The position numbers were made by a program, and so were the translations under genes. The notes beneath the pieces were generated by a model. It was given only the letters and a program-made list of their open reading frames with translations, made no database searches and was not told the origin of the DNA. Source: Syntrophomonadaceae bacterium (GTDB lineage: Bacteria; Bacillota; Syntrophomonadia; Syntrophomonadales; DTU052). Taken from it: DNA of 64,000 nucleotides. Positions 39,530 through 55,829 of this stretch are shown here, in pieces (position 1 is the first letter of the stretch; the number at the start of each line of letters is the position of its first letter). Location of the stretch: NCBI GenBank assembly GCA_012729505.1, contig JAAYDA010000019.1, positions 234 through 64,233 on the forward strand, given 5' to 3'.

Positions 39530-40792
39530 ATGGATTATGAAGCGAGGGTGGTTAAATTGGTTGCGGATTCAGGCCTTCAAATTATAACCTTGGGAAACTT
39601 CGACCTGCGAAACGGCAATGGATCCCTGTTGGAGCCCAAACATAATCGATCTTATAAGATTATGGATCTCTTAAAGCTGTTTATTACATATAAAGATAAA
39701 AACATGATAGCCGATGCCATTGCCGAAAAGCTGTATCCCGAAAATGAGCTGCTGGACCCCAGAAACACATTGCGCACTCAGGTTTACCGTTTGCGCAAGA
39801 TGCTGGCTGAAATGGGGATTATGGACGACCCGGATGATGACCGTTATTGCCAGCTTAACTTTCAAAACGGATATTATGTCTTTTCTTTAAACGGCAACTG
39901 CAATCTTGATGTCGATTTATTCGAAAAGTACATTCAGAACGGCAATACCTTCAAGGACCAGGAGCCTGATCAGGCTATGGACTGGTATCGTAAGGCCCTG
40001 ACCCTTTATAAAGGGGAATACCTGCCGGATAATATGTACACCGAATGGGTCATCCCCACCAGAAACCGGTACCACAGACTTTACTTCCGGGCCTTGCTCC
40101 AGCAGCTGGACCTGCTGAAAAAAGATAACCTCGTCCAGGAAATTATAGAAACCTGTGAAGAGGCTTTTCAAATCGATCCTTACGAAGAAGCTGTTCAGGA
40201 GTACTATCTGGAATCACTGCTGATGCTGGGCCAGATTAAACAGGCCGCCAGCCACTATAAATACATAACCACCAAGCTGAATCAGGAATTGGGTATCAAG
40301 CCCTCCCCCGTTCTGCGGGAAATATATCAGGAAATCAAACGCAAAGCCATTCAGAAAAATGACATGAACTTTTTAGACATTATCCGCGACCTTCAGGAAG
40401 ATGAAGCCGTGGAAAGTGCTTTTGACTGTGATATGGAAGAATTTCGCGCCATTTACAACCTGGAAAAGAGAAAAAGCCTGCGTGATCCGGGCACCTCTTT
40501 TATCGGCTTTGTTTCCGCGCCTGCCGAGATCAGTCAATGGGAGCCCCGGGAGCTGAAAAGCTGTATGCAAAAGGTTAAGGGCATCCTCCTCTCTTCCCTG
40601 CGCCGCGGAGATGTGGTAACCCAGTGGAGCGAACGCACCGTTGTCTTTATTGTAACAGACACCTCCCCGGAGAGCCTGCCCTTCATATCTCGCCGGATCG
40701 AAAACCATTTCGACCGGGAAATTACTATAAAAAATGATGTGCCTTTAAGAATTGATTTTAAACAAATTGACGACAGCCAAGCCCTTCTGTAA
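39530..40792 (+). CDS. SARP/BTAD-family transcriptional regulator with a C-terminal degenerate GGDEF-like domain
   Basis: The N-terminus is an OmpR-type winged helix (..RNTLRTQVYRLRKML). The BTAD/TPR-like core has WYRKALTLYKGEYLPD. The C-terminal ~140 aa end in LRRGDVVTQWSERTVVFIV, which is RxxD plus 5 residues plus SERTV in place of GGDEF. Confidence 0.65.
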   Translation: MDYEARVVKLVADSGLQIITLGNFDLRNGNGSLLEPKHNRSYKIMDLLKLFITYKDKNMIADAIAEKLYPENELLDPRNTLRTQVYRLRKMLAEMGIMDDPDDDRYCQLNFQNGYYVFSLNGNCNLDVDLFEKYIQNGNTFKDQEPDQAMDWYRKALTLYKGEYLPDNMYTEWVIPTRNRYHRLYFRALLQQLDLLKKDNLVQEIIETCEEAFQIDPYEEAVQEYYLESLLMLGQIKQAASHYKYITTKLNQELGIKPSPVLREIYQEIKRKAIQKNDMNFLDIIRDLQEDEAVESAFDCDMEEFRAIYNLEKRKSLRDPGTSFIGFVSAPAEISQWEPRELKSCMQKVKGILLSSLRRGDVVTQWSERTVVFIVTDTSPESLPFISRRIENHFDREITIKNDVPLRIDFKQIDDSQALL

Positions 40793-40839
40793 TCATATAA
40801 CATAACCTTAAACAGCGCGGTAAACCCGCGCTTTTCTGC

Positions 40840-40932
40840 TTTTCATTCCCCCTTTCCCCCTTTCTCCTTTCCCCTCACCCCTTACCCCTTACCCCTTTCC
40901 CCTCACCCCTTTCGCCTCACTCCTCACTCCTT
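40840..40932. repeat. C-rich low-complexity tract (CCCTCAC/CCCTTAC/CCTTTC units), member of the mosaic repeat family
   Basis: ..CCCCTTTCCCCCTTTCTCCTTTCCCCTCACCCCTTACCCCTTACCCCTTTCCCCTCACCCCTTTCGCCTCACTCCTCACTCC.. Confidence 0.8.
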
Positions 40933-40937
40933 ACTTT

Positions 40938-40966
40938 TTGACAAGTAACGCAAATTGCGTTACAAT
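40938..40966 (+). promoter_or_regulatory. sigma-A-type promoter with embedded palindromic operator for the dinJ-like gene
   Basis: TTGACA, a 17-nt spacer, then TACAAT. The spacer holds the perfect palindrome GTAACGCAAATTGCGTTAC (40945-40963). Confidence 0.7.
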
Positions 40967-40988
40967 GTCGGCAAAAGGAGTTGATAAT

Positions 40989-41342
40989 ATGGAAAAGTCT
41001 ACGACCCTGAATCTACGGGTAAATCCTATGGTTAAGCAGCAAGCTGAGAATGTTTTGAAGCAGTTGGGGGTTCCTATGGCTACTGCTGTAGATATGTTTT
41101 TGCGCCAGATCACCCTGACCGGAGGAATTCCCTTTGACGTATCCTTGCCTAAAGCGCCTGCAACCATCAACGCAGATACTATGACGGTAGAGCATCTGCG
41201 TGCAGAGTTGATGGCAGGTTATGAGGATATGAGGCAGGGCAACACACAAGAGGCCCCTGACGCCTTTGCCAAGTTTCGGGAAGCGCACAAAGGTGGTGGA
41301 AGGTTTGGGCGGGAAGGCAAGGGAGAAGATCGAAATGCTTAA
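40989..41342 (+). CDS. RelB/DinJ-family antitoxin
   Basis: RBS AAAGGAG precedes the start. MEKSTTLNLRVNPMVKQQAENVLKQLGVPMATAVDMFLRQI is the DinJ ribbon-helix-helix pattern. Confidence 0.7.
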   Translation: MEKSTTLNLRVNPMVKQQAENVLKQLGVPMATAVDMFLRQITLTGGIPFDVSLPKAPATINADTMTVEHLRAELMAGYEDMRQGNTQEAPDAFAKFREAHKGGGRFGREGKGEDRNA

Positions 41343-41607
41343 CCAAATATCATCAATTCGTGAAGAACTGGCTAATAATTTTACCGTTAAACGCATTGGA
41401 ATTTTCGGCTCATTTGCCCGAGGCGAGGAAAATGCCGAAAGTGATGTAGATATTATCGTTGAGCTTGATGAGCAAACCTTTGATCACTATATGGATTTAA
41501 AATTCCGGCTGGAAGAAGTGCTGCAGCGTCCAGTAGACTTAGTAATTGCCGATACTGTAAAGCCACGCCTTAAAGCGATTATTGAGCAGGAGGTTATCTA
41601 TGCCTAG
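41335..41607 (+). CDS. minimal nucleotidyltransferase (MNT, HEPN/MNT-type antitoxin-like)
   Basis: It has the GIFGSFARGEE..SDVDIIV motif. The start ATG 41335 overlaps the dinJ-like stop by 8 nt. No HEPN gene follows. Confidence 0.8.
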   Translation: MLNQISSIREELANNFTVKRIGIFGSFARGEENAESDVDIIVELDEQTFDHYMDLKFRLEEVLQRPVDLVIADTVKPRLKAIIEQEVIYA

Positions 41608-41609
41608 AG

Positions 41610-41815
41610 ATTCCCTCCATTACCCTCACCCCTCACCCCTCACCCCTCACTCCTCTCGCCTCACCCCTCCCGCAGTAACACGTAGTTAGTTCCACTTGCT
41701 CCCGGAAAGAGATTAAGGAATTAAGGAAGTTCGACGCTCCACGTCGAACCAAGCGAGGAGCACAAATCTCTTAACAAGATTTGGCTCCCGCCTGCCTCAC
41801 CCCTCCGCCTCACTT
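41610..41815 (+). repeat. mosaic structured repeat: C-rich tract + inverted M2 fragment + M1 double hairpin + C-rich tract
   Basis: M1 is GGAATTAAGGAAGTTCGACGCTCCACGTCGAACCAAGCGAGGAGCACAAATCTCTTAACAAGATTTGGCTCCCGCCTG (41717-41794). Related copies lie at 47294, 55848(-), 58503(-) and 63525. Confidence 0.85.
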
Positions 41816-41827
41816 TTCCATGTGCTC

Positions 41828-41930
41828 CTCCTGTGCCTGTTATGTACACTAAAAAAAATTAATAAAAAATTAACATGTGATTCTCTTGTATCTATCCTTG
41901 CAATTCCCCTATGTGATAGTAGGTTATGGT
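41828..41930 (+). promoter_or_regulatory. conserved ~105-nt upstream element (copy 1) with three ATGTRMW direct repeats spaced 33 and 36 nt
   Basis: It aligns with 49201-49305. The repeats are ATGTACA at 41842, ATGTGAT at 41875 and ATGTGAT at 41911. TTGCAA lies between the last two. Confidence 0.4.
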
Positions 41931-41955
41931 ACCAGATAAGCCAGGAGGGTTTAAG

Positions 41956-42165
41956 ATGCCTGATCAATATTGCATACAAGGTTGCACTCATGGGAAGGGA
42001 AACTTCCTTCTTAAAATCCTGTATACGCAAAACGACGATATCCAAGGCACAATTCAATGGCTGGAAGAAGAGAGAACCGTGAATTTTCGCAGCTTCTTAG
42101 AGTTAACCGCCCTCCTATATGAGGCGGTAGGCTTGATAGAAAGTCCACCGGTCTCTCATCCTTAA
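41956..42165 (+). CDS. small cytoplasmic protein (69 aa) heading the fibre operon; unknown function
   Basis: RBS CCAGGAGGG lies 6 nt before the ATG. GNFLLKILYTQNDDIQGTIQWLEEERTVNFRSFLELTALLYEAV resembles a small-protein family I recall next to sipW/tasA-like genes in Clostridia. That recollection is unverified. Confidence 0.4.
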   Translation: MPDQYCIQGCTHGKGNFLLKILYTQNDDIQGTIQWLEEERTVNFRSFLELTALLYEAVGLIESPPVSHP

Positions 42166-42228
42166 AGATATATTGGACAGCAGCTTTAAGTAACGCAACC
42201 AATTATTAGCCCGAAAGTGAGGTACTGC

Positions 42229-42885
42229 ATGATGAAGAAGGAAGGAACCGAAAACATTAATACCCCCGCCAAGCTCCTGAAAATTGCGGCTACCGGTGTG
42301 ATGATAATAGCCTTTACCGCTGGTTCTTTACACCTGGCCACTACCCAATCTTATTTTACCGACAAAGAAACAGGCTTCGCCTCATTTACTCTGGAGGTAA
42401 AACACTCTCAGCATAATTTAGCCGAGCAACTGGACCTTGGGACTAGCAGCACTCCCGGTGAAGAACCAAGCGCTCCCAGCGGAGGCTCAGTCAACCCCGG
42501 CAATGACGGCGACACCGGCGGAGGCGACAATGACGGCAACCCCGACACTGGCGACAACGACGGCGACACCGGCGGAGGTGACAATGACAGCAATACCGGC
42601 GGAGGCGACAACGACGGCAACACCGGCGGAGGCGACAACGACGGCAACACCGGCGGAGGCGACAACGACGGCAACACCGGCGGAGGCGACAGCGGTAGCA
42701 CCGGCGACAGCGGTAGCACCGGCGACAGCGGTAGCACCGGCGACAGCGGTAGCACCGGCGACAGCGGTAGCACCGGCGACAGCGGTAGCACCGGCGATAG
42801 CGGTGGCGGCAGCGACAGCGGTGGCGGCAGCGACGGCGGTGGCGGTAGCGACGGCGGCGGCGGCAGCGACGGCGGCGGCGAATAA
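42229..42885 (+). CDS. secreted protein with SipW-type signal peptide followed almost entirely by Gly/Asp/Asn/Ser/Thr repeats
   Basis: A TM segment is followed by ATTQSYFTDKE, like the SipW-cognate signal motif. A short strand GFASFTLEV comes next. The rest is (GDNDGNTGG)n, (DSGSTG)6 and (GGGSD)n. Confidence 0.6.
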   Translation: MMKKEGTENINTPAKLLKIAATGVMIIAFTAGSLHLATTQSYFTDKETGFASFTLEVKHSQHNLAEQLDLGTSSTPGEEPSAPSGGSVNPGNDGDTGGGDNDGNPDTGDNDGDTGGGDNDSNTGGGDNDGNTGGGDNDGNTGGGDNDGNTGGGDSGSTGDSGSTGDSGSTGDSGSTGDSGSTGDSGSTGDSGGGSDSGGGSDGGGGSDGGGGSDGGGE

Positions 42886-42901
42886 GGAGGCATCCCTGTA
42901 A

Positions 42902-43516
42902 GTGGCTGAGAACGAACAAGCAACCCCGGCGGAGCCAAAAAGAACCGGGTTGGAAAAAGCACTGAAAATAATAGGCAATGTAGTTTGGGGTCTGCTTCTC
43001 ATACTTATAGCCATAAGCATATTCTTCTTCGTACAGTACAAGATAACCGGCGGAACTCCCCAGATACTGGGGCACCGGATGTACATAGTTTTAAGCGGCA
43101 GTATGGAACCGGCGTTCAGTCCCCGCAGCCTGATTTTTGTTAAACCGATGGAGCCGGAGGAGATTCACGAAGGAGACATTATCACCTTCACCGGTGCCCA
43201 GGCCAATAGTAAAGACCTTACCACCCATCGGGTAATAGAGATTGAACGGGATGAAGCAGGGCAGTTAAGCTTTGTTACCAAGGGCGACGCCAATGACGTC
43301 AACGATCCCTACCCGGTACCCGGTGACAGGCTGATAGGCAAAGTAAACCTGGCCCTGCCCTTTCTGGGAGCGGTTATGGACTTTGCCCAGACAAAAGAAG
43401 GAATCTTGGCCTTGATAATTGTCCCCGGCGTTCTCCTCATAGGCATTGAGGCCCGAGGTATTATAGGTAACCTGGCTAAAAAGCCGGAACCGGATAACCC
43501 TGATGATGAAGTTTGA
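42902..43516 (+). CDS. sipW: signal peptidase I, archaeal/SipW type
   Basis: It has an N-terminal TM, the catalytic SGSMEP, THRVIE and KGDAND, and a C-terminal TM. RBS AAGGAGG lies 10 nt before the GTG start. Confidence 0.85.
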   Translation: MAENEQATPAEPKRTGLEKALKIIGNVVWGLLLILIAISIFFFVQYKITGGTPQILGHRMYIVLSGSMEPAFSPRSLIFVKPMEPEEIHEGDIITFTGAQANSKDLTTHRVIEIERDEAGQLSFVTKGDANDVNDPYPVPGDRLIGKVNLALPFLGAVMDFAQTKEGILALIIVPGVLLIGIEARGIIGNLAKKPEPDNPDDEV

Positions 43517-43532
43517 TGGAAGGAGAGAAACT

Positions 43533-44189
43533 ATGAAAAGGAAGATACTGTTTGGATTTCTGTTAATTAGCCTTCAGAGTTTTATGGTAGGAGGCGGCAC
43601 CATGGCTTACTTTACATCCGATGCCACTCTCGCTTCCACTGCTTTTAATTTCAGTACAGTGGACATAAAAATCGTAGAACCCGCTGCTCCCCAGTGTGGC
43701 GGCGGTGGCGGCCAGCAGAGCGCCGCATGGGAAATCACAAATGTCGGAGATCAGGATGTTCAGCTTCGGGTGAAGGTAACAGGGAGATTTGAAAATAATG
43801 AACTCAATACGATGGATACGGAAGAGATAGTTAATCTTACTGGTGAAGCCGACCTCATGAAAGGACCAGGAGGACCAGGAGGACCAGGAGGACCAGGAGG
43901 ACCAGGAGGACCAGGAGGTCCAGGAGGTCCAGGAGGTCCGGGAGGGCCAGGAGGGCCAGGTGGTTCATCCGAGCCTCCCACAGTTGATCTGGTGCCTTGT
44001 AATGGCTGGTATTTAGAAAACGGGTACTATTATTACGATGGTATATTACCCATGGGTGACTCGGTTCCCTTTAGTCTCACATTGAATAAAAGCGGAGGCA
44101 GCACAGGCACCTACAACTATAATCTTGATATCGAAGCCCAAGCCTTGCAGACCGTTAATGAGCCCCAGTGGACAGACGTCAGCTTTTAA
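43533..44189 (+). CDS. TasA/camelysin-like secreted protein with internal (GPG)n linker
   Basis: It has a SipW-type signal ([12 protein letters not shown]). It contains the run GPGGPGGPG... (ten GPG units). The C-terminal [12 protein letters not shown] is like the TasA-family end motif. Confidence 0.65.
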
Positions 44190-44309
44190 TTGCAGGAGAC
44201 ACCCCTTATTATAAATTTTTAGAAATCATAGATTTTTCTACAGTCCAGGGTTCTCTAGTATGCCAAACTTGAAAGGAGGCGAGATACTACTACATATTAT
44301 TCCCCCGAA

Positions 44310-44396
44310 ACAGATAAAGGCAAACCTGCCGAAAGACAGGGACGCAAAGCTATAGGGCCTTTCTGAAAGCAGAATGGCAGCCTGGCCGCCGATAAT
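44310..44396 (+). promoter_or_regulatory. c-di-GMP-I (GEMM-I) riboswitch
   Basis: AAAGGCAAACCTGCCGAAAGACAGGGACGCAAAGCTATAGGGCC....GGCAGCCTGGCCGCCGATAA matches the GGCAAA..GAAAG..GGACGCAAAGCC..GGGTTRCCGA core. It ends about 30 nt before the 44427 start. Confidence 0.8.
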
Positions 44397-44426
44397 TAAG
44401 TAATTAAGTATTGGAGGTAAAAAGGA

Positions 44427-45689
44427 ATGAATAGAAAACTATTATTGAGTTTATTAGCTATCGGTCTGATCGCCGCCCTTATCGGCGGAGCCACCATGGC
44501 ATGGTTTACCGATGAAGAAGCAGTAGCACCGGCAACGTTCACCGCAGGAACCGTGGTTGTAGATGTGGATGGCCCGGAGATTGGAACTCCAGATGGCAAA
44601 TTCTTCGACAATGTTAACCCGGGCGATTGTGCCAATGTTGAGTGGAATGTAGTTAACAAGGGAACCAAGGATGCTTACTTAAGAGTAAAACTGGCCGGAT
44701 CTTGGACAGATGAAAACTTACTTAATAATAACGTATTCTGGGCCCCTGATCCGACCAGCGGCTGGAAGGTTTTTGAAGATGCCGAAGGTGCTGTATGGCT
44801 GGTTTATCCCCAGATAGTAGCGGGAACATATGACAACGAACCAGGTGAATTTGTATCAGTAAAACTTCCCGTCATCATCGGTTTTGACGGCGACCTCACC
44901 GGCAACGTATACCAAGGCAAAACCTATATCCTAGGCGGAGAAGGCAGCGAAGTACAAGCAATTCAGGCTTCCAACGACGCAGCCTTAGCATCATGGGGCG
45001 AAGAATGGTCAGAGATTCTGGGCAATCCTGATTATACAGACGCATACCTGGATGCTGTTGACTACTTCACCAACCCCGAAAGAGGCGGCTATAAGATGCC
45101 TTGCTATGACCGTGGTGATCCTGTAGAAGAGCCCGGTGAGACCACTTTATACGATGTAATCGCTAATGTTATCGTTGCAGGCGGCGGCTCCGTAGTCGGC
45201 GACGACACCAACATAGCACCGAATACTCTCGTAACCCTGACAGCAACTGCTAACGAAGGCTTTGATTTCAAGGGTTGGACCTTGCCCGCAGGCCTGGTCT
45301 TAACTGATGGCAATGAAGAAAGTTCTACAATCGGCTTTGTAATGCCAGCCAATGATGTGAATGTAACCGCTAATTTCGCAGCAACTCCTGCTCCTGTTAA
45401 GTACAATCTGGACGCATCAGCATGGAAATATTATAAGGTTAATTATTGGGAGTATACTTGGGTGAAAAGCACTGATTACGGAACAGTCGCCCCCACCAGC
45501 GGCTCATATGATAAAGACACATCAGTAAAACTGACTGCTTCACCCAAACATGGTAAGAAAGTAAAACAATGGGATGAATACAAGAATGGCGACTGGAAGA
45601 AGATTTCCAATTCCGACGGCAAGACCAGCATTAACGTAACAATGAATGCTGACAAAACTATCAGAGTCGTCTTCTGCGACTGCAATTAA
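44427..45689 (+). CDS. TasA/camelysin-like fibre subunit with C-terminal InlB-B-repeat-like display domains
   Basis: It has a SipW-type signal (GGATMAWFTDEE), then DNVNPGDCANVEWNVVNKG and NVYQG...VQAIQASN. The C-terminal GGSVVGD..VTLTATANEGFDFKGW repeat is also present. Confidence 0.7.
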   Translation: MNRKLLLSLLAIGLIAALIGGATMAWFTDEEAVAPATFTAGTVVVDVDGPEIGTPDGKFFDNVNPGDCANVEWNVVNKGTKDAYLRVKLAGSWTDENLLNNNVFWAPDPTSGWKVFEDAEGAVWLVYPQIVAGTYDNEPGEFVSVKLPVIIGFDGDLTGNVYQGKTYILGGEGSEVQAIQASNDAALASWGEEWSEILGNPDYTDAYLDAVDYFTNPERGGYKMPCYDRGDPVEEPGETTLYDVIANVIVAGGGSVVGDDTNIAPNTLVTLTATANEGFDFKGWTLPAGLVLTDGNEESSTIGFVMPANDVNVTANFAATPAPVKYNLDASAWKYYKVNYWEYTWVKSTDYGTVAPTSGSYDKDTSVKLTASPKHGKKVKQWDEYKNGDWKKISNSDGKTSINVTMNADKTIRVVFCDCN

Positions 45690-45819
45690 TAGCAGGTAAA
45701 CAAATTGCTACACTGAAGAAATCTATTAAATACTAATAACCACCGTAATCCCGGGGTGCGCCCATAGCGCATCCCGGAGGATTACCTGATAAACTGCCCG
45801 AATAAGGAGGGTTGCAGTT

Positions 45820-46575
45820 ATGTTGAGGAGAAACCTAAAAATTATACTGGCCGTATTGTTGGCTTCCTTCCTTATGGCCGGGTCAGCCTTGGGAGCCACC
45901 GGATCCGGGTACAAGATAGTGGGGGAAAGCAACGGATTAGTCATTAGCGCCCCTGACGATCCGGAAAAAACCGATAACCTGAATCCCGGGGACATTAAAA
46001 ACTCACGGCTGGTGCTGAAGAACGAGGGATCTAACACACTGACCGTTTCCATGCGGACGGAGATCACCTGTGAGAACACCATACGCGGCGGTCAACTGGC
46101 CGACATTATGAAGCTGATCATCAAGGACGGCACCCGAGTCATTACCGATGAAACCTTCCGTCAGGCCCATGGCCGGGGGAACTTCGTAATTGGCAGCATG
46201 GCCCCGGGCGATGAAAAGACTCTGTACTTCAACGCGGATCTGCCCGGCGCAGCCGCCAACAACGATTACCAAGGCGCTAAAATGTGTGTTATATGGGTAT
46301 TCACCACTACCAGCAGCTCCACCGGAGGAGGCGGCGGCGGAGGTGGCGGCGGAGGCGGCGGCGGCGGTTTTGTTCCCGATGAGCCGGTCGTTACTCCTGG
46401 GGAACCGGATGTGGTCACCCCCGGTGAAATCCCAACCCCTGATGAAGAAATCATCGTACCGGATGAGGAAACTCCGCAAATGCCCAAAACCGGCGTAGGC
46501 AGCCCTCTGCCCTTTTACGCCCTGGGTGCCTTTGTACTCACCGGCGGAGTCTTCATTCTGAAGAAAAAACAATAA
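45820..46575 (+). CDS. sortase-anchored surface protein with TasA-like N-terminal domain, poly-Gly linker and MPKTG sorting signal
   Basis: It has a Sec signal, then NLNPGDIKNSRLVLKNEG and NDYQGAKMCVIWVF. A G14 run follows, then PQMPKTG, a hydrophobic helix and KKKQ. Confidence 0.75.
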   Translation: MLRRNLKIILAVLLASFLMAGSALGATGSGYKIVGESNGLVISAPDDPEKTDNLNPGDIKNSRLVLKNEGSNTLTVSMRTEITCENTIRGGQLADIMKLIIKDGTRVITDETFRQAHGRGNFVIGSMAPGDEKTLYFNADLPGAAANNDYQGAKMCVIWVFTTTSSSTGGGGGGGGGGGGGGGFVPDEPVVTPGEPDVVTPGEIPTPDEEIIVPDEETPQMPKTGVGSPLPFYALGAFVLTGGVFILKKKQ

Positions 46576-46591
46576 ACTGACACTCAGTAAA

Positions 46592-46627
46592 GAATAGCCG
46601 GTGACCCCGGCTATTCTTTTATTTTGC
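46592..46627 (+). terminator. intrinsic terminator after the LPXTG-type gene
   Basis: AGAATAGCCGG tgacc CCGGCTATTCT followed by TTTATTTTG. Confidence 0.7.
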
Positions 46628-46644
46628 TTAAAGAGGGATGACAG

Positions 46645-47235
46645 ATGCAACGAAAAATAGCGGCGGTACTTTTAATTCTCATCGGTCTGGCTATAGTAAG
46701 CTATCCCCTGGCCCGGGACGCCTACTTTGAATACCAGCAGAGAAAGCTGGCGGAGCTATGGCAGGCCGACCTCCAGCAGATCGACGGCGATGCTGCCATT
46801 GAATATACTATGGCCCAACCGGCCATCGATCTCACCAAAGAAATGGAAGGCCTTTTGATCATAGATAAGATCAAACTGACCGCCCCTATTCTTACGGGGA
46901 TCACCAACCGGAATCTTAATCTCTCCGTAGCCAGTGTGGAAAAAACAGGCCGCCCCGGCGAACCGGGCAACTACTGCATCGCCGGTCACCGCAGCCGTTC
47001 TTACGGTTTATTGTTCAACCGGCTGAACGAATTGGCCGTCGGGGATGATATTGTAGTCCAGACTGAGGATCAGACTTTTGTTTACCAGGTCACTGCCAGC
47101 AAGGTCGTAAAACCGGAAAATGTTGAGCTTCTGAAGCCTGACGGGGACCGAAAGCTCATCACCCTGATAACCTGCGATTACAGCGTAAAAAAACCCTATC
47201 TCCGCCTGATCGTCACGGGGGAATTGGAAGAGTGA
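46645..47235 (+). CDS. sortase-family transpeptidase
   Basis: It has an N-terminal TM, IAGHRS (catalytic His), TLITC (catalytic Cys) and LRLIV (Arg). Confidence 0.85.
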   Translation: MQRKIAAVLLILIGLAIVSYPLARDAYFEYQQRKLAELWQADLQQIDGDAAIEYTMAQPAIDLTKEMEGLLIIDKIKLTAPILTGITNRNLNLSVASVEKTGRPGEPGNYCIAGHRSRSYGLLFNRLNELAVGDDIVVQTEDQTFVYQVTASKVVKPENVELLKPDGDRKLITLITCDYSVKKPYLRLIVTGELEE

Positions 47236-47455
47236 GCATTAGTGAGGCGTAAGGAGTAAGGCGTAAGGCGTTAGGTGTTAGGAGAGATGGGGTAATTAAG
47301 GAAGTTCGACGCTCCACGTCGAACCAAGCGAGGAGCACAAATCTCTTAACAAGATTTGGCTCCCGCCTGAACGCTCCACGTCGAACCAAGCGAGGAGCAC
47401 AAATCTCTTAGCAAGATTTGGCTCCCGCCTGCCTTACCCCTCTCTCCTCACCCCT
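47236..47455 (+). repeat. mosaic structured repeat: G-rich tract + M1 with internal partial duplication + C-rich tract
   Basis: GTGAGGCGTAAGGAGTAAGGCGTAAGGCGTTAGG.. is followed by M1 at 47294-47368. A second copy lacking the first ~16 nt lies at 47369-47433, followed by CCTTACCCCTCTCTCCTCACCCCTCA. The two arms are inverse-complementary in composition. Confidence 0.85.
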
Positions 47456-47457
47456 CA

Positions 47458-48462
47458 TCAACTTCTCATTGTCCGGTTAAACATGACCTGAGCATAGTTC
47501 TCGATGTCATTCGGGGTTAACATATTATATTTCTGTCTTACCGCGCTAAAATACTCTCCAATATCCTCCTTAGCAATTATGCGATTAGAATGGGCGTCAG
47601 ACGGCAGATAGCCGCGGGTTTTGATCCAAGGCATCTCCGAATGCGTAAATCGCTCCAGTATTTTTCCGCTGTAACAGCACAAATGCTGAATCACACTATC
47701 AATAACCGCTTTCTCGGCATCGGTAAAAACAGAAACATCAAACTCTCCGTTGCTTTCAATCTGATCAAAACGGTAATTCGAATAGCGGTTATAAATTTCT
47801 CGATAAACCGGCCCATGCACCCACGCTTCGCAATCATCAACAAATAAGAAAACCTTCATAAAAGCGAAGTAGAAGCCCTGAATATAATACAGCGCCTTTT
47901 GCAACGCCAGAGGAGTGATGTCTTCGCACTGGAACAATAAGTACCCAATAACCGCATCCACTTTAGATGCTTTGTTTATGGGCCGGCCCAGAAATTCTGC
48001 CGTCTGGCGTTTGCTCTTTTCATAGGCTATTTGAGATCTGAGGTTGCCTTTGTTTTCTTCGAGGAATGAAAGGTAAAAAGCCGGATCCCCGTAAATTTTT
48101 TGTAGCATATCAGAATATTGCTTTGTTGGCATATCGCCATCGCAATAGCGGGTAAACGTCATTTCTCCCCAGCCTAAAAGCAGTGACAGCGGCCGTTTGC
48201 CAATGTTATATTTTCGCGGAATCTCTAAGATTTTTTCCAGCGAAATAATGCCGTTTTTTTGACGATAAGCATCATAAAGCGCCTTAAGGTTGCCGTCCTC
48301 GATTTCAGCCGCATAGACTTCGGTGCCGCATTCAGTGCATACAGCTTTATTTCCGGTATAACTATATTCCTCACCTTTCAACGAGCCTTTTAGCGGAACT
48401 CTTTCACAATAATAGGCCACATCTGTTCTGCATTCCTCGCAGAATGTCATTTTCTCATTCAT
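47458..48462 (-). CDS. antitoxin: MqsA-like zinc-ribbon + HTH fused to a DUF4065 (Panacea/SocA-like) domain
   Basis: RBS AAGGAGGAGG precedes the start. The zinc ribbon is CEEC..(34 aa)..CTEC. The HTH-like segment is ISLEKILEIPRKYNIGKRPLSLLLGWGEMTFTRY. The C-terminal LQKALYYIQGFYFAF...WVHGPV resembles DUF4065. Confidence 0.65.
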   Translation of the reverse strand: MNEKMTFCEECRTDVAYYCERVPLKGSLKGEEYSYTGNKAVCTECGTEVYAAEIEDGNLKALYDAYRQKNGIISLEKILEIPRKYNIGKRPLSLLLGWGEMTFTRYCDGDMPTKQYSDMLQKIYGDPAFYLSFLEENKGNLRSQIAYEKSKRQTAEFLGRPINKASKVDAVIGYLLFQCEDITPLALQKALYYIQGFYFAFMKVFLFVDDCEAWVHGPVYREIYNRYSNYRFDQIESNGEFDVSVFTDAEKAVIDSVIQHLCCYSGKILERFTHSEMPWIKTRGYLPSDAHSNRIIAKEDIGEYFSAVRQKYNMLTPNDIENYAQVMFNRTMRS

Positions 48463-48489
48463 AAAGCCTCCTCCTTTCAATTCCAACCC

Positions 48490-48900
48490 TTACTTAAAAC
48501 AGTAATCGATCGGCTTGTTACGCTTATGGAATGATATGACCACCACACGCTTTCCTTCACTGATGCCTATTATGTTAAATTTGGTATAAACATCTACCAT
48601 TTCTTCGTTGCCTTCAAAATTGAATAACATGATCTGTGAACAAAACACATATAAGACTTCATATTCATATCCCAAATTAGTATTTTGTAACGTATGGCAG
48701 AAATCTTCAGGCGCAATTTGTAAAAGAATTTCTTTCTGCTTTTCGCTGGTGAGGTTATACTCGTTTATAAAGTCTACATTTTCCTGTCTATTCTCGTTTT
48801 TAGAAATATAAAAACGGCTCTCTCTTACACAATCCTGTATTGTCTGCAAAGTCAGCACTATTTGCTCTCGTGTATAGTTCTGATCGTAATGCGGATTCAT
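48490..48900 (-). CDS. putative MqsR-like toxin (start uncertain; 48918 is the alternative)
   Basis: It lies directly upstream of the MqsA-like gene with a 27-nt gap. ..EDFCHTLQN....VDVYTKF......VVVISFHKRN parallels MqsR ..DFYKSMT...QDVYRP....LIVSFKEK. The track's N-terminal extension runs into repeat sequence. Confidence 0.45.
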   Translation of the reverse strand: MNPHYDQNYTREQIVLTLQTIQDCVRESRFYISKNENRQENVDFINEYNLTSEKQKEILLQIAPEDFCHTLQNTNLGYEYEVLYVFCSQIMLFNFEGNEEMVDVYTKFNIIGISEGKRVVVISFHKRNKPIDYCFK

Positions 48901-49107
48901 TGCACCACCCCGCACCATCTCTTTGTAATGCAATAATACTATATTATATGCCTTCCGTAAAGTTTTATGCACTAATTGGTTCAGTATAGCTAAGTCATTG
49001 ATCTCTTTTAAAGTTTTCAGACGCTGATTGGAATGTGAGGCGATGATGTGGCACGTGATTAGTTCCAATGCGGCGACTCCCCTCACTTCCCCATCCGCGT
49101 AAATCAT

Positions 49108-49200
49108 AATAATCTGCGTTCATCTGCGTTTTCGTTTCCCCGTTCCCCGTCCCTCGTCTTCCCGTATCTCCTCCCGCCTCACTCCTTTCTCATCGCAACA
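49108..49200. repeat. mosaic repeat fragment (ATCTGCGT units + C-rich tract)
   Basis: AATCTGCGTTCATCTGCGTTTTCGTTTCCCCGTTCCCCGTCCCTCGTC..CCTCCCGCCTCACTCCTTTCTC shares modules with 50571-50690 and 63230-63290. Confidence 0.75.
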
Positions 49201-49305
49201 CTCCCGTGTGCCTGTCATGTACACTAAAAGAGATTCATAAAAAATGTCCGTGTAATTCTCTTATATCTCCCCATGCAATTCCCTTATGTAATAGTAGGTT
49301 ATAGT
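49201..49305 (+). promoter_or_regulatory. conserved ~105-nt upstream element (copy 2)
   Basis: It aligns with 41828-41930. ATGTACA at 49217, GTGTAAT at 49250 and ATGTAAT at 49286 have the same 33/36-nt spacing. Confidence 0.4.
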
Positions 49306-49376
49306 GGCAAAGCTAGTACCGCAAAACCTGACTAGCTGATAATAAAATTATTGAATATATTGGGAGGTAATAGGCG

Positions 49377-50510
49377 ATGAAGAGAAAACTACTATTAAGT
49401 ATACTGACTGTAAGCTTGATCTCCGCTCTTATTGGCGGAGCAACAATGGCCTGGTTCACCGATGAAGCCAAAGTAACAGAAGTACATTTCCAGGCAGGAA
49501 CAGTCAAAGTGGCTACAGATGCGGATTCACCCAACATTGCAGTGCCACCGGGCAAATCACTGGATAATGTTAACCCGGGAGATTGTGCCACCATAACCTG
49601 GAATATTGTTAACGAAGGCACCAAGGCGGCTCAATTGAGAGTCAATCTAAAGGCATTATGGGATGCTGCTCCAGGTATCAGTGAAGATTTAACTTTAGAT
49701 AACGTCTACTACGTTCCTGCTCCTGACAGCAGCTGGGTTCTTTATGAAGACACAAACAAGGTGCTGTGGCTGGTTTATCCCGAATCCGTGCGGGGAACAT
49801 ATAATTCTGCAAATCCTGAAATGCCTTTAGAGCCTGCAGAAATACCGCTTACAGTCGTCATCGGTTTTGACGGTATAGGTACCGGCAACGAATATCAAGG
49901 TGCCGAATTTACCCTGGGCAGTGAAGGCAGCCAAGTAGAAGCTATCCAGGCTTCCAACAACGCCCCCTTGGCAGTATGGGGTGACGAATGGGAGGCAGTT
50001 CTCAATAGAACTTATGTGCCGGTAACTGGTCTGGACGCAAGATACATGAATTATTTCAGCCCGGGACAGCCTGGATATGAAATGGTATGCTTCCAGCATT
50101 TCATCGGTGGAGATGATAACCCTCCTGCCAATAATAAAAAATATAAATTGACCGTCGAAGTATGGGAAGGAGATAGTCAGCGAAACAGTAACCCGTGGAA
50201 GCTTGTAAAAAGTGACCAGCAGGGAGCATCAGACTATGCAGCTAAACTAGTAATACCTAATTTAGCGGCTGACGCAGCAGTGGTGAAATTAACAGCTAAA
50301 GAACACAGCACAGCGCACTTTGTAGAGTGGCAGTATAAAGATGGTTCTGTATGGAAAACATTGACTAACCAAGGCACTACTCAAGGCTCTGGTCAAAGCG
50401 CAATTCACGAATTGAACTTTCCTATTAATACCGAATTTTTAAATAATCCAGATCAAAACGGTAATAATAAAGATATTTATGTCAGAGCCCTCTACGGGTC
50501 TCCCCAATAA
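49377..50510 (+). CDS. TasA/camelysin-like fibre subunit paralogue with a different C-terminal domain
   Basis: It has a SipW-type signal (GGATMAWFTDEA). The first ~210 aa are colinear with the 44427 protein (DNVNPGDCATITWNIVNEG, NEYQG..VEAIQASN). The C-terminal ~170 aa are unrelated. Confidence 0.7.
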   Translation: MKRKLLLSILTVSLISALIGGATMAWFTDEAKVTEVHFQAGTVKVATDADSPNIAVPPGKSLDNVNPGDCATITWNIVNEGTKAAQLRVNLKALWDAAPGISEDLTLDNVYYVPAPDSSWVLYEDTNKVLWLVYPESVRGTYNSANPEMPLEPAEIPLTVVIGFDGIGTGNEYQGAEFTLGSEGSQVEAIQASNNAPLAVWGDEWEAVLNRTYVPVTGLDARYMNYFSPGQPGYEMVCFQHFIGGDDNPPANNKKYKLTVEVWEGDSQRNSNPWKLVKSDQQGASDYAAKLVIPNLAADAAVVKLTAKEHSTAHFVEWQYKDGSVWKTLTNQGTTQGSGQSAIHELNFPINTEFLNNPDQNGNNKDIYVRALYGSPQ

Positions 50511-50570
50511 CCTCCAAACCTGAAATCTAATAACAACAAGGGATGGGTAATCGGCCCATCCCTTATTACG

Positions 50571-50690
50571 TCCCCCCATTCTCCTCCTTCTCACCCCTCA
50601 CGGTCCCCATCTGCGTAAATCTGCGTTAATCTGCGTCTTCGTTCACCCTTTCGCCTTTCGCCTTTCGCCTCACTCCTAACTCCCTCTTGC
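50571..50690. repeat. mosaic repeat fragment (C-rich tract + ATCTGCGT units + TTCGCC units)
   Basis: ..CTCACCCCTCACGGTCCCCATCTGCGTAAATCTGCGTTAATCTGCGTCTTCGTTCACCCTTTCGCCTTTCGCCTTTCGCCTCACTCC.. is the reverse complement of modules at 63230-63290. Confidence 0.8.
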
Positions 50691-50730
50691 ATAATTATTT
50701 TTTTCTGCTAAAATTAGATATAAGTAAAGT

Positions 50731-50812
50731 TGATAAAGGCAAATTCGTCGAAAGGCGGAGACGCAAAGCCACGGGCCTAAGACCGGAAGGTTATGGTCGC
50801 CGGGTTGCCGAT
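50731..50812 (+). promoter_or_regulatory. c-di-GMP-I (GEMM-I) riboswitch, first of a tandem pair
   Basis: AAAGGCAAATTCGTCGAAAGGCGGAGACGCAAAGCCACGGGCCTAAGACC..GGTCGCCGGGTTGCCGATAA aligns closely with the Vc2 aptamer sequence as I recall it. Confidence 0.9.
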
Positions 50813-50831
50813 AATAAAGTGATGATTCCAT

Positions 50832-50869
50832 CATCTGTTTCGGTATCCCGAGGCAGATGTTTTTGTTTT
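50832..50869 (+). terminator. intrinsic terminator / expression platform of the first riboswitch
   Basis: CATCTG..(16 nt)..CAGATG followed by TTTTTGTTTT. Confidence 0.6.
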
Positions 50870-50904
50870 ATCCGACTCTTTGCGTAAAAAGCGAATAGCA
50901 AAAC

Positions 50905-50986
50905 CGATAATGGCAAATCCGTCGAAAGGCGGAGACGCAAAGCCACGGGCCTAAGACCGAAAGGTTATGGTCGCCGGGTTGCCGAA
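50905..50986 (+). promoter_or_regulatory. c-di-GMP-I (GEMM-I) riboswitch, second of the tandem pair
   Basis: AATGGCAAATCCGTCGAAAGGCGGAGACGCAAAGCCACGGGCCTAAGACC..GGTCGCCGGGTTGCCGAAG is nearly identical to the first aptamer. Confidence 0.9.
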
Positions 50987-51024
50987 GTGCGGAAGGCATT
51001 TAATCTGTATTAATGTCTTCATTA

Positions 51025-51062
51025 AAGTCCTCTTCAGGCTTACCCGGGAGAGGACTTTTTTA
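51025..51062 (+). terminator. intrinsic terminator / expression platform of the second riboswitch
   Basis: AGTCCTCT..(14 nt)..GAGAGGACT followed by TTTTTT. It ends about 30 nt before the 51094 start. Confidence 0.7.
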
Positions 51063-51093
51063 ATTCCGATTTTACAAAAGAGGAGTTGTTGAC

Positions 51094-51990
51094 ATGAGGT
51101 CCAAAAAGATTGCCGCCCGGCTTCTAACGTCGATTCTGGCCGCCCTGGTTATTATGGCAGTGTTCGCCGCCCCGTCCCTTGCCGCTGCCTACAGTATCTC
51201 TTTTTCGACTCCCACCATTCAGGTTGCCTCTCCCTCTGTGAACAATACCACTTATGATAAGACCATGTGGGTAGAAGGAACCAGCACCCTGTCCAAAGTA
51301 TGGATTTGTCTGCGGGGACCCAATGGCGAATTAGCCGTCTATCCTGCCGAGGTCAAGAACGGCAGCTTCGGTGAAGAAATATGGCTGCGGTTTGGAACCG
51401 GGAAATATACGGTCTGGGCCGGAGACAATGAAAAGCGTTTTGATGGGAAAATCCGCTTTGAGATTGAGAATTCTTCCCGGGAAGATTACCGCAATCTGGC
51501 CCCATCCGCCCAAGTCAACCCCGAAGATCAATTGATTCAAAAGATAGCGGACAGCATCATAACTGAAAAAATGTCCGATAAGGAGAAGGCTCGGGCTATC
51601 CACGGCTGGGTAACCAACAATATATCCTATGATACCACCGCTTACTTCAGCGGCAATGTTGGATTAAACTCCGCCGCCGATATAATTGCCAGCAAAAAAG
51701 GATTATGCCGGGACTTTTCATTTGTCTATGCTTCCCTGGCCCGCGCCGCCAATATTCCCACCCGGGTCGTTTATGGCGACGCCTGGAACTCCTCTTCCCA
51801 AGCCTACGAAAAACACGCCTGGAACGAATCTTTCATCGATGGTGAATGGATCAATATTGACACCACCTGGGATGCGGGCTATATCAACAGTAAGCAGAAT
51901 TTTGTCCGGGCCGCCGGAGACAAATATTTTAACGCCGATACTATAACCTTCGCCAAGACCCATAAGGTCACATCAGTAACCCTGTTCTAG
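51094..51990 (+). CDS. secreted transglutaminase-like (Cys-His-Asp) protein
   Basis: It has a signal peptide (..VFAAPSLAAA). The transglutaminase core is KKGLCRDFSFVY (Cys), KHAWNE (His) and NIDTTWD (Asp). Confidence 0.8.
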   Translation: MRSKKIAARLLTSILAALVIMAVFAAPSLAAAYSISFSTPTIQVASPSVNNTTYDKTMWVEGTSTLSKVWICLRGPNGELAVYPAEVKNGSFGEEIWLRFGTGKYTVWAGDNEKRFDGKIRFEIENSSREDYRNLAPSAQVNPEDQLIQKIADSIITEKMSDKEKARAIHGWVTNNISYDTTAYFSGNVGLNSAADIIASKKGLCRDFSFVYASLARAANIPTRVVYGDAWNSSSQAYEKHAWNESFIDGEWINIDTTWDAGYINSKQNFVRAAGDKYFNADTITFAKTHKVTSVTLF

Positions 51991-52044: not shown

Positions 52045-53406
52045 TTATTCATTTCTTATGGCTTCCAGAGCACTCAGGTTCATGGCGCGCCGGGCCGGAA
52101 TATAGCCGGAAACAACGCCGATGATGGTGGCAAATATAACTGCAATTATGGCCAGCTCCGGAACTATCACCGACATCTGCCCCACTCCCCCCATGGATTG
52201 CTGACCGTAAATTCTGGCCACTCCCTCATTCAACCCGAATGAGATCAGATAGCTAAGAGCCACCCCCATTAGCCCGCCCCCAAATCCGATCATGGCCGCT
52301 TCCAGCAAAAACATTTTCCTGATATCAGATATATTGGCTCCCAGAACCTTAATAATTCCGATTTCCCTGGTTCTTTCGTAAATGCTCATCATCATGGTAT
52401 TGGCTATGCCTATGGCTGCCACCAAAAGACTTACCGCTCCAATGGCGCCCAAAATGCCCATGATGGTGCGGGATTGTTTTTGCATGGATTCCAGTATCTC
52501 CGTGAGGCTGTGGGCCTGATAACCCATATTTTTAATCTGCTCCTGCACACCTTCTACCTTATCAATATCCAAGGCCTTTACCTTGATAGTCGAATACTTT
52601 TCCTCCTGATTGTTGCGGGTGTTTCTCTGGCCGGTAGCCCGCTGATCCTGTTCGATTATCTCTTCCAGCACCTTAATATTCATATAAGCATTCCAGTCTT
52701 TTTCATCATTGGAACGCACCAGAATACCTACCCCTCTTACCTCATGAGGATCCGGAGCCTTGTAGTCAGAATCCTGAACCGAGCGGCGCGGCTCCCCGTA
52801 ATTGTGATCCGAGCTCATCATAAGCTTGCCGCTTAATAATTTCACCGGCGGCTCCGGTTCCGCTTCCCCTTCTGACATACCTCCGTAGTACATCATCCCC
52901 TCTTGGTCCCGGGAACGGGGATTATAGAAATTGAAAGCCACCTGTTTGCCAAAGACCAGGGCATTCTTATCTGAGGATTGGAGCAAACGGCCTTCTTCTG
53001 CTTCAAAGCCGAAGTTCTCCATAACGTCGGGATTTATACCGACGATGGAAACACCGCCCACCATTCGGCCGGATACCATTTTCATGTAGGTGTTTTTTTC
53101 CGCCATAACCGCTTCAACCCCGGGGATCATCTCGAAAGCCGCCACTGCTGCGTCATCCAGCTTGGCATCCTGCCCTGGCTGGTCGGTGCTGTAGCCATAA
53201 CCTCCGCCGGAGTATACCTGGATAGTATTGAGGCTGCCCATGCTGGCCAGGCTGTCTTTAAAACTCTTCTCCATGGCCAAACCCAAAGAGAGCATTACCA
53301 CAATAGAAGCAGTACCGATAACTACTCCCAAAACGGTAAGAATGGCGCGGGTTTTGCGCCGCATCAAATTGCCGAAGCTCATGGAAATCAGATCAAGATT
53401 ATTCAT
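52045..53406 (-). CDS. MacB/FtsX-type ABC transporter permease
   Basis: It has an N-terminal TM, a large extracytoplasmic domain and a C-terminal FtsX 3-TM bundle (..IGIIKVLGANISDIRKMFLLEA..). Confidence 0.85.
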   Translation of the reverse strand: MNNLDLISMSFGNLMRRKTRAILTVLGVVIGTASIVVMLSLGLAMEKSFKDSLASMGSLNTIQVYSGGGYGYSTDQPGQDAKLDDAAVAAFEMIPGVEAVMAEKNTYMKMVSGRMVGGVSIVGINPDVMENFGFEAEEGRLLQSSDKNALVFGKQVAFNFYNPRSRDQEGMMYYGGMSEGEAEPEPPVKLLSGKLMMSSDHNYGEPRRSVQDSDYKAPDPHEVRGVGILVRSNDEKDWNAYMNIKVLEEIIEQDQRATGQRNTRNNQEEKYSTIKVKALDIDKVEGVQEQIKNMGYQAHSLTEILESMQKQSRTIMGILGAIGAVSLLVAAIGIANTMMMSIYERTREIGIIKVLGANISDIRKMFLLEAAMIGFGGGLMGVALSYLISFGLNEGVARIYGQQSMGGVGQMSVIVPELAIIAVIFATIIGVVSGYIPARRAMNLSALEAIRNE

Positions 53407-55060: not shown

Positions 55061-55083
55061 TTTATTCTTCCTCTCTCCCCTGT

Positions 55084-55767: not shown

Positions 55768-55829
55768 AATACCTTCCGAATATACGTGCTCATTACTAAA
55801 TTGTACCATAAAATATGTAGATTGGATAA

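Follow-up and report, generated by a model that had tools for sequence, protein, structure and literature searches.

The closest characterised system to the locus described here is the tapA–sipW–tasA system of Bacillus, in which TapA starts TasA filaments by strand donation; in TasA-like proteins, the most conserved residues sit in the protomer interface (PMC10151520). The attachment of TasA-type matrix fibres to the cell is still unsettled, even in Bacillus. The closest described gene arrangement is the bsa locus of Clostridium perfringens, most strains of which carry an LPXTG-bearing homologue of BsaB beside srtB and sipW (Kivimaki et al., PMC11580942). The same report found LPxTG and sortase genes to be frequent neighbours of BsaA/TasA genes, suggested sortase anchoring of the BsaB homologue, and described an intermolecular isopeptide bond that locks the BsaA donor strand (PMC11580942). 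Bacterial abpX neighbourhoods likewise include LPXTG proteins, sortases and enzymes of cyclic di-guanosine monophosphate (c-di-GMP) metabolism (AbpX preprint, 10.64898/2026.01.04.697558). In Clostridioides difficile, c-di-GMP induces CD2831 and CD3246, two sortase substrates (PPKTG), and represses ZmpI, the protease that releases them (PMC4591827). Here, we analyse a locus in a 64-kb stretch of DNA (the window) from an uncultured Syntrophomonadaceae metagenome-assembled genome, in which a SipW-type signal peptidase, TasA-like proteins, a sortase with a TasA-like candidate substrate, a secreted transglutaminase-fold enzyme and three c-di-GMP riboswitches stand together.

The association of sipW with a sortase and an LPXTG-type TasA homologue was known beforehand from two preprints (PMC11580942; 10.64898/2026.01.04.697558). 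An initial account of this DNA, made from its letters alone (the sequence-only reading), had known of no characterised precedent for such a locus and had described the TasA fibres of Bacillus as non-covalent; the first statement does not stand beside these two reports, and the second cannot be extended to the family as a whole, BsaA being isopeptide-locked (PMC11580942). As to the riboswitch wiring and the transglutaminase-like partner, our literature search found no report of a c-di-GMP riboswitch with SipW/TasA loci in Clostridia, nor of a transglutaminase-like partner. Our overall proposal, to which we give roughly even chances, is that the locus encodes a donor-strand fibre of the SipW/TasA type together with a covalent attachment point of its own on the cell wall, under c-di-GMP control.

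An open reading frame (ORF) map, Pfam and NCBIfam family scans and Rfam scans were run on the window. All the elements of the sequence-only reading were recovered at their coordinates, namely sipW, four proteins with SipW-type signals, the MPKTG protein (E), the sortase, the secreted transglutaminase-fold protein (J) and three aptamers. The protein-coding core, with the one hairpin inside it, is as follows.

42217–42885, plus strand: protein A, with a SipW-type signal (SYFTDKE), a strand-like segment (FASFTLEV) and, after these, acidic Gly/Asp/Asn/Ser repeats only
42902–43516, plus strand: SipW-type (archaeal/endoplasmic reticulum-type) signal peptidase I (TIGR02228, 128.4 bits against a cut-off of 51.85)
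43533–44189, plus strand: protein C, a small subunit resembling TasA, which has a SipW-type signal and contains a (PGG)n insert
44427–45689, plus strand: protein D, a SipW-dependent TasA-like subunit (Peptidase_M73 35.5 bits, Flg_new_2 87 bits, TIGR04088 34.3 bits)
45820–46575, plus strand: protein E, with a Sec signal, a TasA-fold domain (about residues 37–168), a stalk made of G14 and a Pro/Glu-rich part, and an MPKTG sorting signal
46589–46619, plus strand: terminator-like hairpin between E and the sortase gene (13-bp stem, six GC pairs, T-run tail TATTTTGCTT)
46645–47235, plus strand: sortase (Pfam Sortase, PF04203, 105 bits), with an N-terminal membrane anchor and the motifs AGHRS and TLITC
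49377–50510, plus strand: protein I, a paralogue of D with a SipW-type signal, a TasA-like N-terminal domain and a C-terminal part unlike that of D (Peptidase_M73 41.2 bits, TIGR04088 31.3 bits)
51094–51990, plus strand: protein J, a secreted transglutaminase-fold (papain-like Cys-His-Asp) enzyme (Transglut_core, PF01841, 82 bits against 23)

The argument for a wall-attached subunit centres on protein E. It begins with an ordinary Sec signal (...SALGA/TG), carries the NPGD and N.YQG landmarks, and ends in MPKTG followed by a hydrophobic stretch and KKKQ (MPKTGVGSPLPFYALGAFVLTGGVFILKKKQ), a C-terminus that scores 15.8 bits on TIGR01167, borderline to the cut-off of 15.9. Five close relatives were found in a word-indexed database (43–53% identity), and MPKTG is invariant among the close homologues. 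The AlphaFold2 (AF2) model of E has a confident β-sandwich core at residues 37–168, with a predicted local distance difference test score (pLDDT) of 66–93. When this model was compared with the PDB by Foldseek, the first rank was taken by the TasA fibre (8aur_A; E = 2.5e-7, probability 1.00) and the second by the Pyrobaculum bundling pilus (7ueg_A), followed by chaperone-usher pilins. Moreover, hhalign aligned the profile of the E homologues with that of the neighbouring SipW-dependent subunits at 96.1% probability (E = 3.3e-9), and a broader 78-sequence profile raised this to 98.3% (E = 1.6e-14) over 165 columns, from the signal peptide to the last strand. In this alignment, the invariant E segment GY.I.G..NGL.I is matched to the donor-strand region of D, ATFTAGTVVVDV. 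Protein E itself misses the Pfam PF12389 (Peptidase_M73) gathering score (14.1 bits, E = 0.043); the weak Peptidase_M73 matches of its homologues keep a consistent register, and 39 of the 78 family members reach E ≤ 0.01. Protein E is a full-length TasA homologue, with a Sec signal in place of the SipW-type signal, that has gained a stalk and a sorting signal. The TasA-like nature of this domain, which the sequence-only reading had proposed from its landmarks and without which, by its own account, its idea would fail, is therefore upheld by both the Foldseek and the hhalign comparisons.

Searching with the E-domain profile (E ≤ 1e-3) retrieved 818 cluster representatives, with clusters formed at 50% identity. 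Among the best 150 of these clusters, 112 end in an xPxTG sorting signal, most often LPKTG (28), MPKTG (21) or IPKTG (8), and a third of the 78-member sample matches Gram_pos_anchor. The layout is often one domain plus stalk. Judging from their sequences, single-domain TasA-like proteins with a sortase anchor thus make up a large family, one that has not been curated under that description. To our knowledge, none of its members has been characterised.

The neighbourhood of E is conserved too. We collected 38 related loci (designated by L numbers), from two contig look-ups, six species-representative genomes and 30 metagenomes, of which about 25 are non-redundant; the metagenome loci were found with a narrow 20-sequence E alignment, and all were annotated by profile and sequence searches. 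Their hosts are Peptococcaceae, Tepidanaerobacteraceae, Syntrophomonadaceae and unclassified Clostridia. A SipW-type TasA-like gene lies directly 5' of E in every one of the 38 loci where the contig reaches, and sipW was found in 19 of the 19 loci with at least 4–5 kb of upstream sequence. A sortase gene comes directly after E in all but two cases: L036 has an additional TasA-like gene in between, and L037 has no sortase within 7.8 kb. In its fuller form, the order starts with the SARP-like regulator and the small ORF, continues with an A-like acidic SipW substrate and sipW itself, and ends with one to four TasA-like genes, E and the sortase. The sequence-only reading had held that its idea would fail if the sortase and the xPxTG gene were not co-conserved with sipW and TasA-like genes; synteny across these loci, in several families of Clostridia, rules out chance adjacency of the sortase and E.

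The host locus itself recurs in several digester assemblies, in which the repeat lengths in A, C and E differ. In L039–L044, which are contigs of the host species from different digester metagenomes, A has 175–222 aa, C 195–228 aa and E 233–251 aa, a spread indicating that the G/D/S repeats of A, the (PGG)n tract of C and the Gly run of E vary between strains. One related locus, L001, has a second module 3' of its first sortase (11644–14850), in which a paralogue of the small ORF is accompanied by a second sortase and by a 691-aa LPHTG protein that contains DUF7507/DUF11 and SpaA-like domains; a riboswitch-controlled J gene follows this module on the opposite strand.

The sortase would be the enzyme that acts on E. 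Its Cys-motif region reads LITCDY, it has 196 aa and no C-terminal membrane segment, and it fails all NCBIfam class cut-offs (160–165), scoring 100.6 for class C, 92.2 for class E and 67.9 for class D. In the PDB, its nearest relatives belong to classes A and D, and class C enzymes are also among the relatives. The 64-kb window encodes only one sortase and only one protein with a sorting signal, E, and this count speaks for E as the substrate; no sorting signal was found in the translations of D, C, I and A. The hairpin between E and the sortase gene is a probable attenuation point, which would keep the level of sortase under that of the structural genes. Anchoring of E is supported rather than proven, E being the presumed target of the enzyme.

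The polymerising partners of E would be the presumed substrates of SipW. The sipW product passes TIGR02228 and fails NF046067, the equivalog model of Bacillus SipW (133.7 bits, under the cut-off of 190), so it is of SipW type and not an orthologue-level match. Its translation contains VLSGSMEPAF, TTHRVIE and KGDANDVND, and we take the Ser of SGSMEP and the His of THR to be the catalytic residues of a SipW-type peptidase. Four SipW-type signals had been claimed from the sequence, and all four N-termini can indeed be read (A, ...QSYFTDKE; C, ...TMAYFTSDA; D, ...TMAWFTDEE; I, ...TMAWFTDEA); the TIGR04088 signal model (cut-off 19) is passed by D and I only, C being sub-threshold at 14.4 bits and A having no match. 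D and I also pass Peptidase_M73 (cut-off 22.5). C stays sub-threshold on Peptidase_M73 (19.3 bits) and on TIGR04090 (30.7 bits), yet it aligns with the D family. D, which ends in two InlB-B-repeat-like domains, is presumed to be the major fibre subunit; a PDB sequence search with D returned nothing relevant.

Protein A is of a different kind. It had no match in the Pfam and NCBIfam scans, and shares with the subunits only the signal motif and the strand-like segment. It occupies the position equivalent to that of tapA, just 5' of sipW. In most of the related loci whose sequence covers the interval from the small ORF to sipW, that interval encodes an A-like protein of matching layout, in which the SipW-type signal is followed by a single short strand-like segment and a disordered, acidic tail. 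The exceptions are L025, L033 and L036.

The second line of evidence concerns regulation. The three c-di-GMP-I (GEMM-I) riboswitches of the sequence-only reading were confirmed by Rfam, which gives exactly three aptamers of clan CL00126 in the window.

44310–44394, plus strand: c-di-GMP-I aptamer before D, with a short P3 hairpin (RF03167, 66 bits against a gathering score of 59)
44384–44418, plus strand: expression platform of D, in which the 3' tail of the aptamer, GGCCGCCGATA, is complementary to GTATTGGAGGT, a stretch containing the D Shine-Dalgarno sequence (44413–44417)
50728–50869, plus strand: first c-di-GMP-I riboswitch before J, with the aptamer at 50728–50812 (RF01051, 84.3 bits) and a terminator with a T-run at 50832–50859
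50902–51061, plus strand: second c-di-GMP-I riboswitch before J, with the aptamer at 50902–50986 (RF01051, 89 bits) and a terminator hairpin with T6 at 51024–51058

The gathering threshold of RF01051 is 35 bits. Rfam gave no aptamer like these three before A, sipW or I, and for I the scan of its upstream region with the Rfam models found no c-di-GMP aptamer at E ≤ 1. The aptamer before D ends 33 nt from the gene, and in 18 related loci an aptamer of this type stands directly 5' of the last TasA-like gene before E. The core of the D aptamer reads GACGCAAAGC, as in RF01051, and all 18 of the D-type aptamers likewise read CGCAAA(G/A); the RF03167 consensus is CGC-G-AAG, with a G at the core position. 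We take this position to be the one that defines the c-di-GMP-I-GGC variant (RF03167). As the core of the D-type aptamers has an A and not a G there, we rejected the "GGC variant" as a label for their ligand specificity; their match to RF03167 seems to be driven by the short (truncated) P3 hairpin.

The expression platform of D has no terminator. Instead, the 3' tail of the aptamer, GGCCGCCGAU(U/A), is complementary to the stretch that holds the Shine-Dalgarno sequence of D. RNAalifold recovered a conserved helix between the tail and the Shine-Dalgarno sequence in six of six close loci, and in nine of eleven loci this duplex amounts to −8 to −12.4 kcal/mol. In most loci, shuffled flanks pair less well than the actual flank beside GGAGG, the paired flanks being GAUA/UAUU in the window and GAUU/AAUC in the others. 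Because the base of P3 and nucleotides of the junction are part of this tail, binding of the ligand should free the Shine-Dalgarno sequence. Such folds suggest that the D riboswitch is a translational ON switch.

Gene J is preceded by a pair of aptamers in the window, L001, L006 and L011, and by a single aptamer in L007, L016, L017, L021 and L027. In the tandem loci, a separate U-run hairpin lies ~20 nt 3' of each aptamer. For each unit, we folded the downstream sequence twice, once with the final 22 nt of the aptamer attached and once by itself. In six of the eight tandem units (the first unit of the window, both of L001, both of L011 and the first of L006), the leader folds as an antiterminator when the aptamer strand is included and as a terminator when it is not. 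The tandem units of this terminator/antiterminator type, including the first one of the window, are therefore predicted to be of transcriptional OFF design. As far as the folds can tell, D and J may form a reciprocal module, with ON for D and OFF for these six tandem J units, and with ambiguous single J-type leaders.

Protein J combines a signal peptide and an N-terminal immunoglobulin-like domain with a clear Transglut_core domain, in which the Cys/His/Asp triad is intact (GLCRDF, KHAWNE and NIDTTWD). Among solved structures, its closest relative is 3isr, which entered the PDB under the name "putative cysteine protease"; cysteine proteases have this fold in common with transglutaminases. J adjoins the sortase gene in eight related loci, under c-di-GMP riboswitch control in all of them, and is missing within ~7.5 kb downstream in L020, L022, L032, L033, L035 and L037. 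By this distribution, J is an accessory of one sub-clade.

Taken together, these results lead us to the following model. SipW would process A, C, D and I, and D, with I and C, would polymerise through N-terminal donor-strand exchange in the manner of TasA. The dedicated sortase would join E to peptidoglycan, and E would meet the fibre through a TasA-type strand-and-groove interface, forming a wall-fixed base and perhaps a TapA-like nucleator; E thus probably ties the fibre covalently to the cell wall. Protein A, with its signal, strand and acidic tail in the position of tapA, is a possible strand-only initiator or cap. By analogy with TapA, whose donated N-terminal strand sets off the formation of TasA filaments, the initiator of the fibre could be A, E or the two together. 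The SARP-like regulator would activate both copies of the repeated promoter region, in front of the operon and in front of I. At high c-di-GMP, the ligand-bound aptamer before D would free the Shine-Dalgarno sequence of D, and at least the first of the tandem aptamers before J would terminate transcription. J would then act at low c-di-GMP, releasing or remodelling the fibre or the E stalk, with a logic like that of ZmpI/PPEP-1 in C. difficile. We also considered a broader form of this model, in which E-type proteins are wall-fixed nucleators that unite a TapA-like strand donor with a covalent anchor and constitute, together with the strand-only A, a widespread third way of building Gram-positive surface fibres, the sortase fixing the base from which a non-covalent donor-strand polymer extends, with c-di-GMP toggling in one sub-clade between assembly (D switched on) and detachment by J, which would cut the stalk or the fibre and be switched off at high c-di-GMP; in this full form we regard it as somewhat unlikely.

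Several points limit the model or weigh against it. The physical contact of E with the fibre proteins D, I and C is our inference. The Foldseek TM-scores of E are modest (0.41–0.44), and its structural model was built on a 6-sequence alignment. The D-type aptamer is absent from L017, L021, L022 and L037, and the D riboswitch governs the ribosome-binding site of D only, while E and the sortase gene have their own. The riboswitch polarities, for D as for J, are predictions from thermodynamic folds only: the second J unit of the window folds as a terminator both ways, with no strong antiterminator in the minimum free energy fold, and the single J-type leaders, in which the Shine-Dalgarno sequence is set against the 3' strand of P1, stay ambiguous because P1 could adopt either of two registers. 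J is also absent from about half of the complete loci, and hence no core part of the system. Finally, deletion of srtB in C. perfringens strain 13, a strain without the LPXTG form of BsaB, left BsaA polymers and pellicles unchanged (Obana 2020, PMC7395162).

The srtB result and the conjectural contact with the fibre would both suit another explanation, namely that E is an independent, monomeric surface protein anchored by the sortase, perhaps an adhesin or a matrix receptor fixed to the wall, which has its ancestry and regulation in common with the fibre and takes no part in strand exchange. The very large size of the E family, often with one domain plus stalk, also fits a stand-alone surface protein. 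However, a SipW-dependent TasA-like gene, E and the sortase gene follow one another in a near-invariant order, and E retains a counterpart of the donor-strand segment that includes invariant residues, in a protein class whose most conserved residues lie in the protomer interface (PMC10151520). On balance, we consider the monomeric role of E to be unlikely.

The sequence-only reading had suggested a different task for J, that of a possible cross-linker. In a full form of this scheme, E would anchor the fibre, J would cross-link the TasA-like subunits to one another or to E, and all would be switched on together by c-di-GMP. The clear Transglut_core domain with its intact triad, the signal peptide, the place of J beside the sortase under riboswitch control, and the ambiguous polarity of the single J-type riboswitches speak for it. 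However, the tandem leaders of the window, L001, L011 and L006 point to an OFF design, with the terminator set apart and the 3' strand of the aptamer serving as antiterminator. If D is switched on and J switched off by the ligand, D should go up and J down at high c-di-GMP, unlike what is expected of a cross-linker made with its substrates. This predicted opposite polarity and the patchy distribution of J, which is missing from many otherwise complete loci, both disfavour a co-expressed cross-linker, and the annotation of 3isr as a putative protease adds to the case. We know of no general demonstration that bacterial Transglut_core proteins are cross-linkers. The cross-linking scheme is in our opinion quite improbable, and by analogy with the C. 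difficile system we prefer, as a hypothesis, a role of J in release or remodelling.

A covalent pilus of TasA-fold pilins, for which the sortase would act as a class C-like polymerase joining the MPKTG Thr of E to a lysine of another subunit, is very improbable, because the best partial NCBIfam match to class C reaches no class cut-off and is nearly equalled by class E, the closest PDB relatives are of class A and class D despite the class C enzymes among them, the enzyme is short and has no C-terminal membrane segment, and the pairing of at least two sorting-signal pilins with a class C sortase that marks a sortase-assembled pilus was not found in the window, where E is the single sorting-signal substrate.

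Besides the genes and riboswitches listed above, the locus includes a regulator gene, a small ORF and two copies of a promoter-region repeat.

39530–40792, plus strand: BTAD/SARP-type transcriptional regulator (Pfam BTAD 70.6 bits, weak Trans_reg_C match)
41832–41930, plus strand: first copy of a promoter-region repeat, 5' of the small ORF, A and sipW (99-nt direct repeat, family D8)
41956–42165, plus strand: conserved 69-aa cytoplasmic ORF, with an AGGAGG ribosome-binding site and the motif FLLKI.Y..N..IQG.I.W.E.....FRS..EL..L
49207–49305, plus strand: second copy of the promoter-region repeat, 5' of gene I (84% identity to 41832–41930, family D8)

The locus thus reaches further upstream than its first description, to the 69-aa ORF and the regulator. 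Thirteen related loci also have a homologue of the regulator 5' of the operon, and the regulator is likely an activator of the locus. Gene I shares this transcriptional input with the operon, and does not share the riboswitch. Homologues of the 69-aa ORF take the corresponding position, before the A-like gene, in 16 loci, with two copies in L001. Its sequence is 100% identical to GXY50_02840. Searches of Pfam, NCBIfam and PDB profiles gave no match for it, and its AF2 model, from a 6-sequence input, is poor and all-helical (pLDDT 62.8).

The block is split by a toxin-antitoxin-like insertion on the minus strand (47458–49107). Its antitoxin-like gene (47458–48486, minus strand) encodes an MqsA-type zinc-ribbon N-terminus and a SocA/Panacea domain, and the 205-aa partner (48490–49107, minus strand), which has no Pfam or NCBIfam match, could be a new Panacea-associated toxin. 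The module lies between a repeat and the second copy of the 99-nt promoter region, which suggests insertion into a duplicated unit. The repeat concerned, of ~87 nt, occurs four times in the window (41708–41794, 47283–47369 and 47345–47431 on the plus strand, and 55870–55908 on the minus strand) and folds as two hairpins, GTTCGACG..CGTCGAAC and GGAGCACAAATCT..AGATTTGGCTCC (z = −4.2); it has no Rfam match and looks like a genome-specific intergenic element resembling repetitive extragenic palindromes. Between the regulator and the operon, at 40938–41607, a RelB-like antitoxin gene overlaps a small MNT-type nucleotidyltransferase gene, a pair that is not at the corresponding position in more distant loci. 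C-rich 7-nt periodic repeats of the CCCCTCA/CCCTTTC type (families D4 and D5) occupy several intergenic regions of the locus (40825–40943, 41597–41673, 47421–47453, 49159–49205 and 50560–50703). Directly 3' of J, the minus strand at 52045–55809 encodes a permease of the MacB/FtsX type, an ABC ATPase and a 553-aa protein that combines CARDB/NEW3 domains with a C-terminal membrane anchor, and homologues of the ABC ATPase also lie 3' of the locus in L006 and L037.

Our work can provide insights into the attachment of TasA-type fibres, for which the locus offers a concrete route: together with its roughly 25 non-redundant relatives, it points to a TasA-fold protein handled by a dedicated sortase. 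If this holds family-wide, it would be a common mode of biofilm-fibre anchoring in anaerobic Firmicutes, including pathogens such as C. perfringens. The conserved layout of the riboswitches, with its predicted opposite polarities, leads to a hypothesis of attachment and release controlled by c-di-GMP, and gives a candidate role to a secreted transglutaminase-fold enzyme. As the host is an uncultured organism known from a metagenome-assembled genome, tests will need heterologous systems or cultivable relatives.

Compared with the tapA–sipW–tasA system of B. subtilis, the locus has the same SipW-type peptidase, TasA-fold subunits with an N-terminal donor strand and the NPGD and N.YQG landmarks, and an accessory SipW substrate gene just 5' of sipW. 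In contrast to B. subtilis, the operon includes a dedicated sortase and a TasA homologue that bears a sorting signal, the subunits occur as several paralogues with extra C-terminal domains, and protein A has no folded immunoglobulin-like domain, whereas TapA has one. Control by SinR/AbrB is replaced by c-di-GMP riboswitches and a SARP-like regulator.

The sipW–bsaABC locus of C. perfringens resembles it in having sipW, the TasA-like BsaA and BsaB, a neighbouring sortase and, in most strains, one BsaB homologue with LPXTG. However, the C. perfringens sortase gene is divergently oriented, regulation is by the BsaRS two-component system and by temperature, and riboswitches and a transglutaminase-like gene are unreported there. 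BsaA has an N-E-K isopeptide lock; mature D and I, inspected by eye, have no Asn in their first ~12 residues.

With the archaeal bundling pili and the AbpX-type biomatrix proteins, the locus shares a fold superfamily, the second-best Foldseek match of E being such a pilus. The AbpX report stays at the level of neighbourhoods, and riboswitch wiring and a TasA-fold anchor subunit are undescribed in it. Sortase pili of the SpaA/Ebp type likewise bring together a sortase, an LPXTG-like substrate and subunits of an immunoglobulin-like fold at the cell wall; unlike them, the present locus has a sortase that reaches no class C cut-off and a single sorting-signal substrate, and its polymer subunits carry SipW-type signals and donor strands instead of sorting signals.

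The regulatory logic is closest to that of CD2831/CD3246, SrtB and ZmpI (PPEP-1) in C. difficile, where c-di-GMP riboswitches of opposite polarity act on sortase-anchored proteins and on a secreted enzyme, as would be the case here if the predicted polarities hold. In C. difficile, the substrates are adhesins of the collagen-binding type and not of the TasA fold, the ON switch is of class II, and the enzyme is a zinc Pro-Pro endopeptidase, compared with the transglutaminase-fold Cys enzyme of our locus. An xPKTG-type sorting motif and a class I aptamer on the repressed gene are common to both systems.

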